Shown here: in pieces, positions 14,546 through 61,076 of the stretch
Position numbering within the stretch: the stretch's first letter is position 1
Layout of the letters: every line of letters begins with the position of its first letter
Assembly (NCBI GenBank): GCA_945872435.1
Contig: CAMBYP010000001.1
Coordinates: 544 to 64,543, forward strand
Origin: an uncultured Mycoplasmatota bacterium
GTDB taxonomy: Bacteria; Bacillota_I; Bacilli_A; RF39; UBA660
Reading direction: 5' to 3'
Length of the DNA: 64,000 nucleotides
Made by a program: the position numbers and the translations under genes
The notes under the pieces: generated by a model
What the model saw: the letters and a program-made list of their open reading frames with translations, nothing else
The model's database searches: none
Told to the model about the DNA's origin: nothing

Positions 14546-16066
14546 TTGAATCAAAAATATCGTGCAGGTATTTATATTAGACTTTCTAGAGAAGATGAAA
14601 AAGAAGAAAAAAATGTCGATAGTGAAAGTGTTAAAAATCAACGTAATTTACTTATGAATTATATAAAAGAACATGATTATTTTTTTTATAAGGAATATGT
14701 TGATGATGGATATAGTGGTTCTAATTTTGATCGCCCAGCGTTTCAAGCATTAATTACGGATATTGAAAATAAAAAAATTAATATGGTAATTGTAAAAGAT
14801 TTATCGCGATTAGGAAGAAATAATATAGAAACAAATGAATATATAGAAAGATATTTTCCCAAACACAGCATTCGTTTTATTGCTATTTTAGATGATGTAG
14901 ATACTGAAATTGATACTTATGGAAACGAGATGGCACCGTTTAAAGTTTTTGTAAATTCATATTATAACAAAGAAACATCTAAAAAAATTAAAACAACTTT
15001 AAAGAATAAAAAAAAGGGCGGGTTATTTACAGGATGGAAAGCACCATATGGTTATCAAAAAGATCCTAGTAACCCTTATCATTTAATTATTGATAAAAAA
15101 GTAGAACCAGTCGTAAAAAAAATATTTGAACTTGCTAAAAATGGAAATAGTTCTACCAAAATTGCATCTATTTTATCTAAACGAAAAATTCCTAATCCTA
15201 GTAATTATGCTAATTTAAATCAAACATCTGTAAATTCATGGTGTCCTAGAACCATTGATGATATGTTAACAAATCAAACTTATATCGGTAATTTAACCCA
15301 AGGAAGAAGAAAAAAAATATATGGAATGAAATTAGAAATTAGAACGAAACAAGAAGATTGGATTATTGTACACAATACACATGAAGCAATCATAGATTTA
15401 AAAACGTTTGAAGCAGTTCAAAAAGTAAAACAGCATATTACTAAAAAATCGACAAACAATTATTTATTTTCTGGTTTTTTAATATGTAAAGAATGCGGCC
15501 ATTCATTGAGTATTATAAAAAATAAAAATAGAAAACAAGTATATACGTCTTGTAATTATTATCGAAAACATAGTAAATTACATGTTTGTACACCACATAC
15601 TATGAATTATAAACAGTTAGAATCAAAAATACTTACTACTTTAAATAATCTCTTGATAACTAACATTGATAAAAATAAATTAATTCATAAACTGCAATAT
15701 TTAGATCACAAACATAATTCATGTTGTAACTTATGTAAAAATTTAAATCAAGAAAAAAATAAGTTAATTGTTTTAGAAAATCAACAAGATCAATTATACT
15801 TAGATTTTAAACAAAACTTGATTTCATTACAACAATATATAAGATTGAAAAAAGAGATAGAAGAAAAAAATATGATACAACAAAAAATTATACAACAATT
15901 AAAAGACAAAATAAAAAAGAATAAAACTACTTTAGAATATGAAAAAATCATTGATCAATATTTATCATTAAAAAAAATGAATAAAGTATTTTTTTCTAAT
16001 TTGATTGATAGAATTGAAATTGATAAAAATAAAAATGTTGATATTTATTTTCGATTTCATATATAG
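14546..16066 (+). CDS. large serine recombinase (resolvase/invertase N-domain + recombinase domain + zinc ribbon + coiled coil)
   Basis: N-terminal YIRLSREDE with the catalytic Ser in the RLSR context. 506 aa. C-terminal Cys cluster (CKECGH...C..C) and coiled coil. TTG start with a GAGGTG RBS. The gene ends 44 bp inside the right island boundary. Confidence 0.85.
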   Translation: MNQKYRAGIYIRLSREDEKEEKNVDSESVKNQRNLLMNYIKEHDYFFYKEYVDDGYSGSNFDRPAFQALITDIENKKINMVIVKDLSRLGRNNIETNEYIERYFPKHSIRFIAILDDVDTEIDTYGNEMAPFKVFVNSYYNKETSKKIKTTLKNKKKGGLFTGWKAPYGYQKDPSNPYHLIIDKKVEPVVKKIFELAKNGNSSTKIASILSKRKIPNPSNYANLNQTSVNSWCPRTIDDMLTNQTYIGNLTQGRRKKIYGMKLEIRTKQEDWIIVHNTHEAIIDLKTFEAVQKVKQHITKKSTNNYLFSGFLICKECGHSLSIIKNKNRKQVYTSCNYYRKHSKLHVCTPHTMNYKQLESKILTTLNNLLITNIDKNKLIHKLQYLDHKHNSCCNLCKNLNQEKNKLIVLENQQDQLYLDFKQNLISLQQYIRLKKEIEEKNMIQQKIIQQLKDKIKKNKTTLEYEKIIDQYLSLKKMNKVFFSNLIDRIEIDKNKNVDIYFRFHI

Positions 16067-45853: not shown

Positions 45854-47527
45854 ATGAGAATGATAAAAGTAAATTATAGAGACAAAGAAACCAAAGAATT
45901 TTTAGAAGATACAACGCTTTTAGAAATGAGTGATAGTTTTAAGAAGTACTATAATTATCCTATTTTAGTTGCTAAAGTAGACAATGATATTACACCATTA
46001 GCAGAAAAAGTAACTAAGAAATGTGATATTGACTTTTATGATCGTTCAAGTGATGTTGGCAATGAGATATATGGCCGTAGTATTCAATTCGTGTTAATTT
46101 TAGCTGTAAAAAGAGTTCTTGGAAAAGATGCAGATATTGTAGTTGAACATTCCATTGACAAAGGTGTTTATTGTGAAATACATGGTGTTTCTATTGATAA
46201 ACCAATTGTAAAAAAATTAGCTGATGAAATGAAAAAAATTGTAGAAGAAAATTTAATTTTTACAAAAGTTAGTGTTTCTCGTATTGATGCTATTAAGTAT
46301 TTTAAAATGAAAAAGAAAATGGATAAAGTTCATGTTTTAAAATATATTAGTAATACTTATATTAATTTGTATCGATTAGATGATCTATATGATTATTTTT
46401 ATGGAGATTTAGCTTATAGTACCAAAGTATTAGATGAATTTAAATTAACTTATATTAAAGGAAATGGATTCGTGTTAAGTTATCCAGATGTTTATAATCC
46501 AGAGTGTACATTAGACTATAAACATCATGCTAAATTATTTGATGCTTTTTTGGATTATACAGTGTGGGGTAGAACATTGGGAATTAATAATGCAGCAGAT
46601 TTAAACGAAAGGGTATCGACGGGATTATATGGTGATTTAATTCGTGTAGCTGAAACACATTATGATGGACAGTTATCTAATATAGCTGAAGAAATTTATC
46701 GTCGAAAAAATCAAATACGAATGGTTTTATTAGCAGGCCCTTCTTCTAGTGGAAAAACAACAACAAGTAAAAAATTACAAATTTATTTGCAAAGTAAAGG
46801 AATTAAAACTCATCAAATTTCTATTGATGATTATTATTTAAATAGAGATAAAACACCGTTAGATGCAGAAGGAAATCCGGATTTTGAAAGCATTCGTGCT
46901 ATTGATTTAGAACTTTTTAATAAACATTTATTAAAATTATTAGATGGTGAAAAAGTACTTCTCCCAGAATTTAATTTTGTGACTGGAAAAAGAGAATTTA
47001 AAAAGAAATGGTTACAACTTGGTGAGAATGATATGATTGTTATTGAAGGATTACATGCTTTAAATGATGAACTTACAATGAGTATTGAAAGAAAACAGAA
47101 ATATCGTATTTATATGAGTCCTTTAACACAATTAAATATCGATAATCATAATCGTATTCATACGAGTGATACTAGAAAATTAAGAAGAATTATCCGTGAT
47201 AATAAGTATCGTGGATACAGTGCTGCAGACACACTTGCTATGTGGCCAAAAATTCGCGCAGGGGAAGAAAAAAATATTTTCCCATATCAAGAAGACGTAG
47301 ACAAGATTATTAATTCAGCTCTTTTATATGAACTAGGAGTTTTAAAAACTTATGCAGAGCCACTCTTATTTAGTGTAAAAGAAACAGATCCTATTTATCC
47401 AGAAGCATTACGACTTATTAATTTCTTAAGAAATTTCTTGCCAATTCCTTCAGAAGAGGTACCAAAAGATAGTGTACTTCGAGAATTTATTGGCAATAGT
47501 TGTTTTCAAGGAAATAACGGCTTATAA
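45854..47527 (+). CDS. uridine kinase family protein with an N-terminal ThrRS-like TGS/second-additional domain
   Basis: The first ~250 aa resemble threonyl-tRNA synthetase N-terminal TGS and editing-like domains. The C-terminal half has a P-loop AGPSSSGKTTT and a uridine-kinase/PRK fold. Confidence 0.7.
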   Translation: MRMIKVNYRDKETKEFLEDTTLLEMSDSFKKYYNYPILVAKVDNDITPLAEKVTKKCDIDFYDRSSDVGNEIYGRSIQFVLILAVKRVLGKDADIVVEHSIDKGVYCEIHGVSIDKPIVKKLADEMKKIVEENLIFTKVSVSRIDAIKYFKMKKKMDKVHVLKYISNTYINLYRLDDLYDYFYGDLAYSTKVLDEFKLTYIKGNGFVLSYPDVYNPECTLDYKHHAKLFDAFLDYTVWGRTLGINNAADLNERVSTGLYGDLIRVAETHYDGQLSNIAEEIYRRKNQIRMVLLAGPSSSGKTTTSKKLQIYLQSKGIKTHQISIDDYYLNRDKTPLDAEGNPDFESIRAIDLELFNKHLLKLLDGEKVLLPEFNFVTGKREFKKKWLQLGENDMIVIEGLHALNDELTMSIERKQKYRIYMSPLTQLNIDNHNRIHTSDTRKLRRIIRDNKYRGYSAADTLAMWPKIRAGEEKNIFPYQEDVDKIINSALLYELGVLKTYAEPLLFSVKETDPIYPEALRLINFLRNFLPIPSEEVPKDSVLREFIGNSCFQGNNGL

Positions 47528-47931
47528 TGATTAGAGTTGCACTTCAAGGATTTGGAGAAGAGGGAAGATTTGCTTTAGAGCAATTATCTTTAGCAGAAGG
47601 ATATCAAGTGGTAGCAATTAATTTTTTAGGAGATCAATTTCACTATAAATTATTTCAAGAAAAAGCAAAATTAGATATGTGGATTGGTTATGAAAAAAAT
47701 ATAAAAAAACTACCATGGAAAGAATTAAAAGTTGATGTTGTACTTGATCTTGTCGATGAACAGTTGGGACTGAATTTTAATTTACATCAACAAGCAGGTG
47801 CAAAAAAAGTAATTGTTTCTAGAAATCAACAGTTAATTCCTACAATTTCTAGAGCTTCATTTATTTATAGTCCCAATCAAGAAAAAACCAAACAATACAA
47901 AATAAAATATAATAAGAAAAGAGGAAAATAA
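47527..47931 (+). pseudogene. degenerate duplicate of the GAPDH N-terminal (NAD-binding) domain
   Basis: 134 aa that can be aligned by eye to residues 1 to about 110 of the adjacent gap product (MIRVALQGFGEEGR vs MIKVAINGFGRIGR; LPWKELKVD vs LPWKELEID; AGAKKVIVS vs AGAKKVIIS). The NAD-binding glycine motif is degenerate and the catalytic domain is absent. Confidence 0.55.
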
Positions 47932-47932
47932 A

Positions 47933-48940
47933 ATGATTAAAGTAGCAATTAATGGATTTGGAAGAATTGGAAGATTAGTATTTCGTTTAATGGAAAATGA
48001 TCCACAATTTGAAGTAGTAGCAATTAATGATATTACAGAACCAGAACAATTAGCATATTTACTAAAATATGATACTTCTCATAAAAATTATCGTGTAAAT
48101 GAAATTAGTTATGGAGAAGATTATATTCAAGTAGGTAATCACAAAGTAAAAATTTGTAAAGAATTAGATCCTGCAAATTTGCCATGGAAAGAATTAGAAA
48201 TTGATGAAGTATTTGAATGTACTGGAAAATTTGTAAAATATGAAGATGCTCATAAACATATTGAAGCGGGAGCAAAAAAAGTAATTATTTCAGCACCTGG
48301 TAAAGGTGATATGAAAACAATCGTATATAATGTTAATAGTGATACGTTAGATGGTAGTGAGGAAATAATTAGTGCTGCTAGTTGTACAACGAACTGTTTA
48401 GCACCAGTTGCTAAAGTATTAGATGAAGTATATGGAATTGAAAAAGGTTTTATGACTACTGTTCATGCTTATACAAATGATCAAACAATTTTAGATGTTG
48501 CTCATAAAAAAGGAATTAAAGCTCGTCGTGGTCGCGCAGGAGCAGCTAATATTATTCCTGCTAGTACGGGAGCAGCTGTTGCTGTTGGAAAAGTACTTCC
48601 TAATTTACTTGGAAAATTAGATGGAATGGCTTTCCGTGTTCCAGTAACAGATGGATCAGTTGTAGATCTTACTGTAGAATTAAAAAGAAACGTAACCGTT
48701 GAAGAAGTAAATGCAGCTTTAAAAAATGCAAGTAATGAAACTTTAGGATTTACTATGGATCCAATTGTATCAAGTGATATTATTGGTTCACATTATGGAA
48801 GTTTAGTAGATGGACTTTGTACTACATTAATTGAAGTTGATGGAAAACAAATGGTAAAAGTAGTTGCTTGGTATGATAATGAAATGAGTTATTCTACACA
48901 AATGGTTAGAACAGCAAAACTATTGGGAACAATGTTATAA
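47933..48940 (+). CDS. gap: glyceraldehyde-3-phosphate dehydrogenase
   Basis: NGFGRIGR NAD motif and the active site SCTTNCLAP. Confidence 0.9.
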   Translation: MIKVAINGFGRIGRLVFRLMENDPQFEVVAINDITEPEQLAYLLKYDTSHKNYRVNEISYGEDYIQVGNHKVKICKELDPANLPWKELEIDEVFECTGKFVKYEDAHKHIEAGAKKVIISAPGKGDMKTIVYNVNSDTLDGSEEIISAASCTTNCLAPVAKVLDEVYGIEKGFMTTVHAYTNDQTILDVAHKKGIKARRGRAGAANIIPASTGAAVAVGKVLPNLLGKLDGMAFRVPVTDGSVVDLTVELKRNVTVEEVNAALKNASNETLGFTMDPIVSSDIIGSHYGSLVDGLCTTLIEVDGKQMVKVVAWYDNEMSYSTQMVRTAKLLGTML

Positions 48941-55667: not shown

Positions 55668-56441
55668 ATGAAAGAAATAAAAATATTAATGATTGATGAT
55701 AATAAAAATTTAGTAAATATGATTGGAGAATATTTTAAAGATCACCAAACAATTCATTTAGTAGATGTTGCATATGATGGAAAAGAAGGATTTGACAAAA
55801 TTAAAGAAAATAAAGATGCATATGATGTGATATTACTTGATTTAATTATGCCAAATAAAGATGGAATGTATGTATTAGAAGAAATGAAAAAGAATGATAT
55901 TCATAAAAATGTGATTGTAGAAACAAGTTACAATGCAAGTGAAACCATTCGTCAAGTATCAGAGTATGGAGTGAATTATTTTTTGTTAAAACCATTTGAT
56001 TTAAAAGATTTAGAAAAAAGAATTATGAACTTTTGTACTGATAAAACATTAGAAAGTAAAAATATTGATTTTTACCATAATAACTTGCAAATATCGATTA
56101 CTAAAATTTTACATGAATTAGGAATTCCATCACATATTAAAGGATATCAATATATTCGTGAAGCAATTGGAATCATTTATGAACATCCTGAAGTAATAGG
56201 TGGTATTACAAAAGAATTATACCCAGAATTAGCTACTAAATTTGATACTACTGTTTCTCGTGTAGAAAGAGCAATTCGTCATGCAATAGAAGTTAGTTGG
56301 AACCGCGCTAATTGGTCATTGATGGAAGAAATTTTTGGTAATAGTGTAGATATTGATAAAGCAAAACCAACCAATAGTGAATTTATTGTAACTGTAGCTG
56401 ATAAACTTAGATTAGAATCAAAAAAGATAGGAATTGCATAA
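55668..56441 (+). CDS. spo0A: sporulation master regulator Spo0A (response regulator)
   Basis: Receiver domain with LLDLIMP. The Spo0A-specific C-terminal DNA-binding domain ([32 protein letters not shown]). RBS AGAGGGA. Confidence 0.9.
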
Positions 56442-56562: not shown

Positions 56563-57942
56563 ATGAAGAATAAAAGGGTTAGAAATAAAAAAATCTTTTA
56601 TAATGTAGTTATTATTTTTAATATATTATTAATTGTTGGTTTGATTTTATATTATGGTTATCGTCTTGTTTATTTTTATCAATTAGAACATCAAAAACCT
56701 AAAGCAATTAAATACGTACATGAAAAGATAAAGGCTTCAAATGAATTAGTTAGTGAAGGTGATGGCCTTTATTTGGACGATAAAAATCAAGTATTTTATT
56801 TTAAAGGAAAAGTATTAAATAATTATCTATACTATTCTGGAAAAATGTGGAGAGTTATAAAAATAAATCAAGATGGTAGTATGGTTTTAATTTTAAATGA
56901 TGTGATTAGTGCTCTTACTTATGGAAGTAGTAGCAAGTATCAAGATTCGTCATTGCGAGGTTATTTAAATACTATTACAAATCAACCATTCACAGGAATT
57001 TTTGAGCAAACATTGAATGATAAAAATCAATATTTAAAAAAGACAAGTATTTGTATTGATCAAATTTCAAATATTGAAGATATTACTTGTGATAAAAAAG
57101 TAACACTTGATTTTGTAGGTTTATTAAATTTAAGTGATTATCAATTATCAGGAGGAAAGAATGGTTATTTAAATCATCATATTTCTTATTATACAGCAAC
57201 TACTGATAATCATGATCGTTTATATTATGTGCATTCTAAAGGTGGTGTAACACTTACCGATGATTATAAAGAACATAATTATGGAGTAAGACCTACAATT
57301 ACATTAAAGAAAAATATTTCTTATATATCTGGCGATGGTACTGAAACAAATCCATATATTATAGAGCCAAAAGAAGAAAAAACTATGATTTATATTGGAA
57401 ATTATGTATCATATAGCGGATATACTTGGAAAGTAATTTCTAAAGATGATCAAACTTACAAACTAGCAACATCGTCTTTATTAACTGATAAAACAGGACA
57501 GGTCTATATGAGAAATTATGCGACAAAAAATAATTTGTATCAAGTAAAAACTTATGGAAGCTTGGCTTATTATTTAAATACAAATTGGTATCGAACATTG
57601 ATAGATAAAAGTTTAATTGTTGATGGAACTTGGTATACTGGTAATTACCAAATAAATGGTGTTACTGATTATAAAAATATCTATACAGATTCTATTTCTG
57701 CAAAAGTAGGATTATTACATGTTGGAGAATTATATTCTTTAGAACTTCCAAATACTTGGTTAATGACAACAGTAAATGAAGATGATGATATGGTTTATTC
57801 TGTAGATCAAAATGGAAAATATTTTTCTGATATGATTGATAGTGAACATGGAATTAGACCTGCAATTTATATTACAAATCAAATACAAATTGTATCTGGT
57901 ACTGGAGTTTTAAGTGATCCATATGTGATAGGAGGCATGTAA
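56563..57942 (+). CDS. membrane-anchored protein with two tandem ~190 aa repeats, each ending in a G-[VI]-R-P-x-I motif
   Basis: N-terminal TM. The repeats share YSGxxW[RK]VI, YLNT and VGLL..xY motifs, then YGVRPTITLKKN....SGDGTETNPYII and HGIRPAIYITNQ....SGTGVLSDPYVI. Confidence 0.5.
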   Translation: MKNKRVRNKKIFYNVVIIFNILLIVGLILYYGYRLVYFYQLEHQKPKAIKYVHEKIKASNELVSEGDGLYLDDKNQVFYFKGKVLNNYLYYSGKMWRVIKINQDGSMVLILNDVISALTYGSSSKYQDSSLRGYLNTITNQPFTGIFEQTLNDKNQYLKKTSICIDQISNIEDITCDKKVTLDFVGLLNLSDYQLSGGKNGYLNHHISYYTATTDNHDRLYYVHSKGGVTLTDDYKEHNYGVRPTITLKKNISYISGDGTETNPYIIEPKEEKTMIYIGNYVSYSGYTWKVISKDDQTYKLATSSLLTDKTGQVYMRNYATKNNLYQVKTYGSLAYYLNTNWYRTLIDKSLIVDGTWYTGNYQINGVTDYKNIYTDSISAKVGLLHVGELYSLELPNTWLMTTVNEDDDMVYSVDQNGKYFSDMIDSEHGIRPAIYITNQIQIVSGTGVLSDPYVIGGM

Positions 57943-58962
57943 ATGAAAATAAAAAAGAAAAAAAAGACAGCGATTGTGCTTTTGATTTTAGATGTTTGTA
58001 TCATTATTTGTTTCTTTTTAGCATATGGACCTTTTAGTTATTTAAGAGAGTTATATATTACAACTGCTGTGACAACGATGACACATAAATATTTAGCTCG
58101 TACTATTTATACAGAAGATATGATTCAAGATGTATTAGATGGAAATTATGTAAAAGAGTCAGGGGAAAGTACGGATACAAGTGATATTGTCATTGGTGAT
58201 ATTGATGATAGTGGAGAATATGACTCTGTTTATGATGAACAAATTTTAACTAGAGATTCTGAACATCCAGAATACAAATTAATTCCTTTAAAAGGAAGTA
58301 ATTATAAAGGTTATATGGTAGCTATATATGATCCTAGTCGTGTTGAATTAGTTATGACTAATAAGTTAGGAAAAATTGGACAATTTTTACGTGAATTAGT
58401 AGTACAAAATAATGGAATATTAGGTATGAATGCAAGTGGTTTTGTCGATACTAATGAAATGGGAAATGGTGGAGAACCAACGGGAATAGTAATTCAAGAT
58501 GGAAAAGTAATTTGGGATGCTACTAAAACTGGATATTCTGGTGGAATCGCCGGTTTTACCAAAGATAATAAATTATTGTTAACAAAAGGAAGTGCCATGG
58601 ATGCAATTAAAGCAGGAATAGAAGATGCAGTTGAATTTGGTCCATTTTTAATTGTTAATGGAAATGCTGCTGAAATAAAAGGTAATGGTGGATGGGGAAT
58701 AGCCCCTAGAACTGTTTTAGCACAGCGTAAAGATGGAATCGTATTATTTGTAGTAATTGATGGTAGACAGCCAGGATATAGTGTAGGAATTAGTATGGTT
58801 GAACTTACTAAATTATTACAAAGATACAAAGTGCATAATGCAGTAAATCTAGATGGAGGAGCTTCTAGTAGTATTGCAATTGGAAATAAAACAATTACAA
58901 AACCATGTGGATATAGTGCAACAGGTGAAAGAAGAATACCAAATGCTTGGATATTAAAATAA
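57943..58962 (+). CDS. phosphodiester glycosidase family protein (DUF2233-like), membrane-anchored
   Basis: N-terminal TM. The C-terminal domain has GMNASGF and VNLDGGASSS motifs typical of the NAGPA-like phosphodiester glycosidase family. GGAGG RBS. Start overlaps the previous stop. Confidence 0.6.
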   Translation: MKIKKKKKTAIVLLILDVCIIICFFLAYGPFSYLRELYITTAVTTMTHKYLARTIYTEDMIQDVLDGNYVKESGESTDTSDIVIGDIDDSGEYDSVYDEQILTRDSEHPEYKLIPLKGSNYKGYMVAIYDPSRVELVMTNKLGKIGQFLRELVVQNNGILGMNASGFVDTNEMGNGGEPTGIVIQDGKVIWDATKTGYSGGIAGFTKDNKLLLTKGSAMDAIKAGIEDAVEFGPFLIVNGNAAEIKGNGGWGIAPRTVLAQRKDGIVLFVVIDGRQPGYSVGISMVELTKLLQRYKVHNAVNLDGGASSSIAIGNKTITKPCGYSATGERRIPNAWILK

Positions 58963-59118
58963 TAACAACATAATGAAATAAAAAGACTATATTATCTAGT
59001 TTGAAGTTGTAATCAAAAAGAAGCAAAAAAGTATATAACAATATCATGTAAAGAAAAAAATCAACTTTTTAAACGATTGAAATTTGATAAAATGAATCAG
59101 AATAGAAGAGATTTAAAT

Positions 59119-60197
59119 ATGAAAAGTAAAGGATTTACACTAATCGAATTATTAGCTGTTATCGTAATACTAGCCGTAATTGCATTAATTGCAACTCCAC
59201 TGATTATGGGGACAATTACAAAGCCAAAAGAAACGCAATGAAAGATACGGCATATGGAATATTAAAAGCAGGAGAACAATATGCAGGGGAAAAGTTATTG
59301 CTAGCAGAAAATAATTATGCAGGAGAAACAATTGCATTACCAAACCAAGATAAAATTCAATATAAAGGTGGTAACGGGGTAACAGGTGAATTACAAATAT
59401 CAAAAGAAGGAAATCTCGCAATTCAAATTCATAATAATCAATTTTGTGCAATGAAAAATTTTGGAGAAGACGAGGTAACAGTAACAAACTATGATGCAGA
59501 AACATGTAAATTAAATGGATCAAGTGGTGGAGAAAGTAATTTTGGAGGAACAATTGTACCATCCACAGGTGAAGAAAAATACAAAGGAATCGTATACTTA
59601 GATCCAAAAGATTTAACGAAAGAATGTAATGAAGGAAATGCAGTAAGTACAACAGGAACAAAAACAGGATGTATGAAATGGTATATCTATGATGATGAAG
59701 GGGATACATATAAAATGATATTAGATCATAATACAACAGCAAAAGTCGCATGGAATTCATCAAATATAAATACAGAAATGAAAGAAGTAAAAGTGGCATT
59801 AGATACAGATACAGAAGGATGGGTAGGAAGTCCAAGATTAATCACCGCAGATGAGATAGCAAAAATAACAGGAAATACAAGTTTTAATTCAGCATATGCA
59901 ATAATGGCAGGATGGTTCTATTTGGATAGTAATAGTACTGCACAAACAGCTAATTTCAGTAATAAGTCAAAATATGCATGGTTATTTGATAGAACAATTA
60001 ATTGTACAAATTATGGATGTAATATAAATGAAGATAGTACTGTTTATGGGTATTGGACAACTTCATCTGTTTTTAATTCTTCTTCTAGATTATGGTGTGT
60101 CAATTTTAGTGGTGATTTATCAACAATGGATGCTGCTTCTGTACAACCTCGTGGTGTTCGACCAGTGATAACTGTCTTAAAATCTAATTTATCATAA
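59119..60197 (+). pseudogene. type IV pilin-like protein (prepilin-type N-terminal cleavage/methylation domain), frameshifted in a poly-A tract
   Basis: Frame 1 (59119..59241) encodes MKSKG|FTLIELLAVIVILAVIALIA, a class III prepilin signal with G-1, F+1 and E+5. It stops after 40 aa. The globular domain continues in another frame from 59238 (319 aa), ending ...GVRPVITVL. The frame changes at ccaaaag (59224-59230); adding one A would fuse the two. Confidence 0.6.
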
Positions 60198-60229
60198 CAG
60201 ATAGAATTATAAGGCAAAAATAAATAAGA

Positions 60230-60253
60230 AAAAAGACCAATAGGTCTTTTTTT
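60230..60253. terminator. bidirectional intrinsic terminator
   Basis: aaaaagacc aat aggtcttttttt, between the pilin gene and the convergent P-loop gene. Confidence 0.55.
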
Positions 60254-60302
60254 GTAATATCGTGATTGACATACCAATATTTGTCCGTATAAGGAGATAT
60301 TA

Positions 60303-61076
60303 TTATCTAGTCTTTATTTTTGGTTTTTGATATTTTTCAATCAGTTGCTCGATAATAAGTCTTAAGTGTTGATTTCTTTTATTATTCCATTGAAAGTCAT
60401 TGTGCATAATTTTTAATTTCCCATCTAATAATCCAGCTTTGTTGAGTGATATATAAGCATCTTGATAAGCCTTTCTATAAATTTCATGATCTTTCGTATT
60501 GTTTTCATCCGCTCTTCTTTTCAATGCTTCATTCATTTGTTGGACAGTTCTCATGATTAATAAGAAGTATTCATCTTCGTTTTGGTGAATTCTTTGATAA
60601 ACTTGTTTTGTTCTATTTTCTTTTGATAATGAAAGTATTTTTGGATTAGAAAATACTTGTGGATCTCTATCTTGAGCAACAATTCCTTTTCTTATAAAAT
60701 AACGAACAATAGATGATTTTCCAGTTCCTTTCGCACCTTCTACAACTATACGAAATGGTTGAACATTTTTTAAAATTGATTCATGCGATTGATAATATAC
60801 AAGGTTTGTTACATCAACAAGGCCTTTTTTATTGGTATTTCTAGTTTGCTCTGGAATAAAGTTTTTTAAATCATTTGTTTGACTTGTTACTGTTAAAAGA
60901 ATCAAATGATGTGGTAATTTATAATAATCAACTGTTATATTTTTATCTTCATCTAAAAAGAAATAACGATTAAAATCAGTTTCTTCTTGTTTGCCAATAT
61001 ATTCAAGTGTCTTTAAGTAACTGTCTATACCTCCTGAACATCCGATTCTAGTTGCAACATATTTTTTTTGATACAT
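60303..61076 (-). CDS. P-loop NTPase, hypothetical (nucleotide kinase-like)
   Basis: Walker A VVEGAKGTGKSS in mid-protein. 257 aa. No further family assignment. Confidence 0.45.
   Translation of the reverse strand: MYQKKYVATRIGCSGGIDSYLKTLEYIGKQEETDFNRYFFLDEDKNITVDYYKLPHHLILLTVTSQTNDLKNFIPEQTRNTNKKGLVDVTNLVYYQSHESILKNVQPFRIVVEGAKGTGKSSIVRYFIRKGIVAQDRDPQVFSNPKILSLSKENRTKQVYQRIHQNEDEYFLLIMRTVQQMNEALKRRADENNTKDHEIYRKAYQDAYISLNKAGLLDGKLKIMHNDFQWNNKRNQHLRLIIEQLIEKYQKPKIKTR

Follow-up and report, generated by a model that had tools for sequence, protein, structure and literature searches.

The window analysed here is a 64,000-nucleotide stretch of genomic DNA with a G+C content of 27.9%. It comes from a lineage of uncultured gut Bacilli, and the ribosomal protein S4 of this lineage shows no more than 80% identity to the named hits listed, which are all 'Bacilli bacterium' MAGs. 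On its forward strand it carries a type IV pilin-like gene that is divided between two reading frames. The first of these, ORF1, starts with an ATG at 59119, encodes MKSKGFTLIELLAVIVILAVIALIATPLIMGTITKPKETQ in 40 codons and ends at a stop codon at 59239–59241. ORF2 follows with 319 codons (59238–60197), and its frame is that of ORF1 after the addition of one base. The start codon of ORF2 and the stop codon of ORF1 overlap as ATGA (59238–59241). The features of the locus, in window coordinates, are as follows:

59104–59111, + strand: degraded ribosome-binding site, GAAGAG in the window as opposed to GAGGAG in the syntenic orthologue of a sister species (contig L020) and GAGGAGG in a second intact relative (contig L007)
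59119–59241, + strand: ORF1, the prepilin N-terminus, with the leader MKSKG, a predicted cleavage after Gly5 and a TGA stop created by the frameshift
59223–59224, + strand: disabling lesion, the missing G of a GG pair, located by alignments with L020 and L007 and present in 16/16 same-species contigs
59226–59229, + strand: A4 tract, equal in length in intact orthologues and not the lesion
59238–59549, + strand: first part of ORF2, the amphipathic rest of alpha1 and a small beta-sheet, then a low-confidence linker (AlphaFold2)
59550–60197, + strand: second part of ORF2, a DUF6273/Lcl_C-like module with a conserved Cys, a GVRPVI motif and the stop codon (Foldseek; Pfam on homologues)
60229–60254: bidirectional terminator-like hairpin AAAAAAGACC-AATA-GGTCTTTTTTT, common to the pilin gene and the convergent gene at 60303–61076

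A gene divided by one base

With a one-base repair, the two ORFs yield an uninterrupted protein of 359 aa. The first-pass annotation was thus right to describe a split pilin-like gene, in which a 40-codon prepilin ORF is followed by a 319-codon ORF in another frame, and to expect a continuous pilin of roughly 360 aa from a single-base correction. None of the aligned homologues is split at the lesion point, and all 60 of them are single ORFs. In the window, the frame that should run from the signal peptide to the globular part is ended at 59241 by a 1-nt deletion at 59223/59224, and the locus is therefore best described as a pilin pseudogene rather than a functional member of the family. An antisense ORF within the pilin gene (59185–59835, minus strand, 216 aa), which is rich in Leu, Tyr and Phe and of low complexity, almost certainly results from the AT-richness of the coding strand rather than being a gene.

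The N-terminus has all elements of a class III signal peptide. A short basic leader with Gly at position -1 (MKSKG) precedes the mature sequence FTLIELLAVIVILAVIALIA, in which FTLIE places a Glu at +5 and is followed by the hydrophobic alpha1-N segment of about 20 residues. After repair, the protein is recognised by the prepilin N-terminal methylation models PF07963 (N_methyl, E=2e-7) and TIGR02532 (E=1.8e-7), which bears out the textbook prepilin leader and N-terminal helix originally noted in the first 40 codons. Weak matches to GspG, ComGC and PilA models are confined to the N-terminus.

An intact orthologue of 358 aa (P0142) occupies the syntenic site of a sister species, where it is represented on three contigs (L020–L022). 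Gene order is alike in the window and on these contigs, running from TIM, spo0A, a 458-aa DUF6273-like protein, NAGPA and the pilin to a convergent P-loop ATPase, Ham1, DUF4186, Dus and RDD. Together with the 60 unsplit homologues, P0142 supplies the intact single ORF that a comparison of orthologues had been suggested to look for. A scan of genome contigs with the repaired protein returned only two distant relatives (41–44% identity), and the window's own species was absent from it.

Alignment with L020 and L007 identifies the lesion as the absence of one G of an ancestral GG at 59223/59224 (AAG GCC to AAGCC). The window reads AAG-CCAAAAGA, where intact relatives read AAG GCC AAA AGA with an A4 of equal length. 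Over a longer stretch, the syntenic orthologue on L020 and the intact relative on L007 have ACAAAGGCCAAAAGAAAC, compared with ACAAAG-CCAAAAGAAAC in the window, and L020, L021 and L022 have AAGGCCAAAAGA, compared with AAGCCAAAAGA in the window. Written in codons, the DNA of L020 is ACA AAG GCC AAA AGA AAC GCA ATG and that of the window is ACA AAG -CC AAA AGA, and the relative on L007 (P0002) carries the same letters as L020 at the lesion site. Since the intact genes carry the same A4, this tract is unchanged and the lost base is a G of the GG pair. Slippage in the A-tract is ruled out as the cause by the identical A4 of the intact genes. The frame change had initially been mapped to this tract (ccaaaag, 59224–59230), with one extra A expected to restore the ancestral pilin. 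Neither the position nor the base holds, as the intact genes have the G in place. The ancestral protein reads ...TITKAKRNAMKD... at the junction (in longer form ...TITKAKRNAMKDTAYG...), and not ...TKPKRNAMKD....

Fixation of the deletion and decay of the gene

To place the window copy within its species, we compared 16 contigs from 16 different samples, carrying two contig-naming schemes. The missing G is identical in all of them. Further disabling changes occur in the same gene. A second 1-nt deletion (G4 to G3 at 59208–59211) is found in 10/16 contigs, and so is the nonsense mutation Q41* of ORF2 (CAA to TAA at 59358), while L34* of ORF2 (TTA to TGA at 59338) is found in 2/16. The allele P0133 has an additional C-terminal frameshift. 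The second deletion and Q41* appear in all combinations, including the deletion only (L004) and the stop only (L015), so that either the strains recombine or the lesions are recurrent. ORF2 is still open over its 319 codons in the window and in 6/16 contigs, which indicates that the decay is very recent.

Translation signals have been affected as well. The Shine-Dalgarno core has changed from GGAG to GAAG through a G-to-A substitution at 59107, where L020 and L007 keep the G, and a further G-to-A substitution at 59110 is present in 10/16 contigs. Polymorphisms within the gene comprise four nonsynonymous, two nonsense, one indel and one synonymous change among the contigs, a pattern consistent with relaxed constraint, with counts too small for a formal dN/dS and with nonsynonymous differences being numerous in the adjacent NAGPA gene too. 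Truncated products are encoded on at least 106 contigs among the 15 members listed, with the 319-aa call on 24 and a 248-aa call on 82. The latter starts at Met72 because of Q41*. At 90% identity, the cluster of the 319-aa fragment holds 42 sequences.

Variation was also observed around the pseudogene. In the NAGPA gene (57943–58962, + strand), the same-species contigs show 8 nonsynonymous versus 2 synonymous differences and a premature stop in one contig (58314 T>G), so that the variation is unusually protein-changing for an intact neighbour. On one contig (L012, 3807–4631), an rve-family integrase of an IS element lies with unrelated genes directly 3' of the pseudogene, at the usual position of the P-loop ATPase gene, which is a local rearrangement in one strain. 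Finally, two short ORF1-like peptides (P0138 and P0140), encoded on contigs of about 600 bp, have the leaders MFLKKQKG... and MNKKG... and share the frameshifted tail ...TKPKETQ*. They may reflect the same lesion in other sequence backgrounds, through recombination or in further strains.

The population data bear directly on the alternatives to gene loss. In the simplest of these, the true genome would be intact and one base would have been dropped from the consensus. Single-base indels are a frequent assembly artefact and a short homopolymer adjoins the split, and a homopolymer sequencing error had been among the options considered in the first-pass annotation. However, the same base is missing in 16 samples with two contig-naming schemes, the affected run is just GG, and independent secondary lesions lie within the same gene. 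Moreover, the in-frame version is absent from the protein collection: five reconstructions (the G restored on three alleles, and an A5 on two alleles) were compared by exact look-up with about 15 billion public proteins, and none was found. These observations contradict a sequencing or assembly error, which we regard as exceedingly improbable.

The in-frame versions would also represent the ON allele of a phase-variable gene, in which a hypermutable tract toggles the pilin between ON and OFF by slipped-strand mispairing and the window shows the OFF state. Phase variation is classically seen in genes for surface adhesins and pilins, and 2 nt separate the A4 tract from the lesion. The locus thereby resembles known contingency loci, in that a surface adhesin-type gene is broken by a 1-nt change near a homopolymer. 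In contrast to such loci, the change lies in a GG pair (GG to G) and not in a long tract, and the A-tract is constant at A4 in the intact genes too. Known contingency tracts are much longer than A4 or G2. Nor do ON and OFF lengths coexist, as 16/16 contigs are OFF and all five in-frame versions are absent, and the OFF alleles that carry nonsense mutations are irreversible by slippage. Since the lesion lies outside any repeat tract, no allele is ON and some stops are irreversible, slipped-strand phase variation is contradicted and appears very unlikely.

Alternatively, the cell could itself restore the full-length pilin by programmed -1 ribosomal frameshifting or transcriptional slippage. The required shift is indeed -1, tRNA-Lys on AAA (59227–59229) could re-pair with an overlapping AAA, and a modest fold is predicted downstream (-12.5 kcal/mol, z=-2.2). 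This fold is long-range and weak, however, with no nearby hairpin or pseudoknot, and there is no X XXY YYZ heptamer. An Rfam scan of 58700–60500 gave no match. The arrangement is also not conserved, as neither the orthologue nor any of the 60 aligned homologues is split, and most strains have stop codons further downstream. Recoding at this site is thus hardly credible.

A pair of real genes, coding for a membrane peptide of 40 aa and, by ATGA-coupled re-initiation, for an independent 319-aa protein, would account for the stop/start overlap, and the 319-aa ORF is called as a gene in public annotations. Yet ORF2 starts partway through the alpha1 helix of the pilin, it has no signal peptide despite its Cys-containing extracellular-type module, and no Shine-Dalgarno sequence precedes 59238. 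ORF2 is furthermore truncated by Q41* in 10/16 strains, and the two parts are always fused in homologues. For these reasons a pair of genuine genes is highly unlikely. The ATGA overlap could permit some re-initiation, and a residual function of the still-open ORF2 is formally possible.

We conclude with high confidence that a gene for a modular type IV pilin has recently been inactivated at this locus, where the deletion has become fixed and the gene is now drifting. It is disrupted relative to intact orthologues, the disruption is fixed, and further disabling mutations have followed. The recent-pseudogene option of the first-pass annotation is supported by the deletion in all 16 contigs, the secondary nonsense and frameshift lesions, and the intact syntenic orthologue in the sister species. 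One G of GG at 59223/59224 was lost in the window species, so that translation from the pilin start ends after 40 codons. The remaining 319 codons are left without a signal peptide and without a good ribosome-binding site, and the deletion went to fixation. Mechanistically, the frameshift is nothing new, and the finding is an ordinary pseudogene. For annotation, the two ORFs are best joined into a single entry marked as a pseudogene. The 319-aa fragment currently stands as a protein of its own on more than 100 contigs.

Architecture of the ancestral pilin and its family

To describe the protein before its inactivation, ORF2 was modelled with AlphaFold2 using an alignment of 61 sequences that includes the window fragment. 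The model has a mean pLDDT of 90.5 and consists of two modules. The first contains the remainder of alpha1 (helix residues 2–22), which is packed on a small sheet of five strands between residues 30 and 84, and the predicted structure thus shows the long alpha1 helix on a beta-sheet that is characteristic of the pilin fold. A linker (residues 95–100, pLDDT below 50) connects it to a C-terminal module of about 215 residues (105–319). A profile of the family matches the solved pilins MshA, PilE1, PilA5 and PilA across alpha1 and beyond (E 1e-9 to 1e-3), over up to about 140 positions. The product had initially been described as a large protein resembling type IV pilins, with Cys in its globular domain, and this was correct.

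In a Foldseek comparison with the PDB, the only significant match of the C-terminal module is 9qa6, an IgA peptidase of Thomasclavelia ramosa (E=4e-4), and weaker matches include mannose-receptor C-type lectin domains and a DGR variable protein. The N-terminal domain of this peptidase is annotated as DUF6273 (PMC12402451), and a C-type-lectin-like character has been ascribed to DUF6273 in the 'tentaclins', which are phage DGR target proteins (PMC10743442). The window protein itself scores below significance against the Pfam model of DUF6273 (PF19789), and 19/61 homologues match it. Lcl_C (PF07603) is matched by 3/61. In the peptidase and the tentaclins, DUF6273 is part of a peptidase or a phage tail protein, whereas in the window gene the module is fused to a pilin module.

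The pilin module, the linker and an additional domain with no specific tie to type IV filaments together define a modular pilin. In such proteins, the pilin acts as a carrier that bears a functional module and lets the filament present it, as in PilB and PilC of Streptococcus sanguinis (Raynaud et al. 2021, PMC8179133), where PilB combines a pilin with vWA and PilC combines a pilin with a concanavalin-A-like lectin (PMC8179133; PMC9934059). The window gene shares with them a class III signal peptide, a small pilin module, a short linker and a bulky ligand-binding module, as well as a monoderm Bacillota host and, probably, an adhesive role at the surface of a type IV filament. It differs in its effector, which is DUF6273/Lcl_C-like (C-type-lectin-like) instead of vWA or ConA-like. 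In addition, the S. sanguinis genes lie in a pil locus, whereas the window family is dispersed among housekeeping genes and is known from sequence and model, and the window copy is a pseudogene. The ancestral 359-aa protein comprised a class III signal peptide, a 'carrier' of alpha1 and the small beta-sheet, a short linker, and a DUF6273/C-type-lectin-like module of about 215 aa. This module was presumably a ligand- or glycan-binding adhesin shown on a type IV filament, and we infer that the ancestral pilin needed a prepilin peptidase and an assembly machinery encoded elsewhere.

The family to which this protein belongs is large. A search with the repaired protein gave more than 6000 matches at E<=1e-3. 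These are typically 330–365 aa long and 40–50% identical over the full length, carry N_methyl and often DUF6273, and derive from 'Bacilli bacterium' MAGs. Within the 61-sequence alignment, N_methyl is found in 60 sequences, the window fragment being the sole exception. The G, F, T, L, I and E of the prepilin motif are at least 90% conserved, and the C-terminal part has an invariant Cys, a Trp and a G-x-R-P motif. The C-terminal module alone retrieves 1129 representative clusters at E<=1e-3 and 265 at E<=1e-30, in carrier proteins of 184–2048 aa with up to six copies. Gly(-1) and Glu(+5) are strongly conserved, which suggests that genes for a prepilin peptidase and for a filament machinery are present in the genomes of family members.

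Genomic setting and possible exchange of modules

Within the window, the pilin gene stands apart from any pilus genes. A Pfam scan of the 59 window ORFs of at least 97 aa found no T2SSE, T2SSF, Peptidase_A24 or ComG, in line with the reported absence of pilB, pilC, pilD and com genes from the window, and no second prepilin motif is present in its six frames. The Pfam functions in the window are housekeeping only, e.g., TsaBDE, the arginine deiminase pathway, PFL, NusA/IF2, EzrA, glycolysis and Spo0A. Seven homologue contexts (L007, L020, L023, L024/25, L026/27, L028 and L029) present the same picture, with the genes placed among housekeeping genes either singly or in runs of 2–4 N_methyl genes, and with no assembly genes, prepilin peptidase or pilus ATPase within 6–10 kb. 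As all seven contexts are dispersed, orphan placement is the norm in this family. The description of the gene as an orphan pilin therefore stands for the window but does not set the window copy apart. The gene spo0A (55668–56441), noted earlier as a neighbour, lies two genes upstream of the pilin, with no link indicated beyond local synteny in the sister species.

Three further observations concern other genes of the window. A second lectin-like surface protein (56563–57942, + strand) adjoins the pseudogene. A 134-aa ORF (47527–47931, + strand) directly upstream of the full-length gap gene (47933–48940) matches just the first ~36 residues of the GAPDH NAD-binding domain, and may be a duplication remnant. 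A large serine recombinase (14546–16066, + strand; Resolvase, Recombinase and Zn ribbon) is flanked by the arginine deiminase operon and a gene for a polysaccharide pyruvyl transferase, and may mark a mobile or excisable element.

Sequence identity between the window and L020 is uneven. Across the locus it amounts to about 82%, but 58840–59741 differs from L020, L021 and L022 at only 6 positions in 902 nt, including the G indel (99.3% identity). This tract takes in the final 120 nt of NAGPA, the spacer between the two genes and the initial 620 nt of the pilin gene. At the 3' end of the pilin gene, in contrast, identity to L020 over 300 nt is only 58–86%, which is below the genome background. 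The difference between the 99.3% tract, the ~82% background and the divergent 3' end suggests that the promoter and pilin module recently recombined, between species or mediated by a paralogue, and that the C-terminus of the lectin-like module turns over rapidly. P0115 (L028, 6001–7140) and P0093 (L029, 4255–5424), which lie at unrelated loci, are 92–95% identical to the first ~135 residues of the window pilin but have another DUF6273 module. The sample that contains P0093 is also the source of P0002. Judged from these alignments, dispersed paralogues appear to shuffle modules.

The most divergent part of the pilin gene is the extreme C-terminus, which is also where variable regions usually lie in DGR targets with a C-type lectin fold. 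Targeting by a DGR is not indicated as the cause of the hypervariable 3' end, as the window contains no repeat of 59850–60197 that could serve as a template and no reverse transcriptase (RVT domain) among its ORFs in the Pfam scan.

One possible, though tentative, reading of these patterns is that in the dispersed modular pilins of gut Bacilli a 'carrier' cassette of promoter and pilin module moves between paralogues and species and joins fast-diverging lectin-like modules, with the pseudogene as one casualty. If this were true, gene loss by frameshift would be part of a turnover of the adhesin repertoire under host or phage pressure. The useful lead is the wider, uncharacterised family, with hundreds to thousands of pilin-plus-lectin-like genes scattered in uncultured gut Bacilli. 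Display of these proteins on type IV filaments, if it occurs, would make them a large unexplored repertoire of adhesins with signs of recombinational module exchange.
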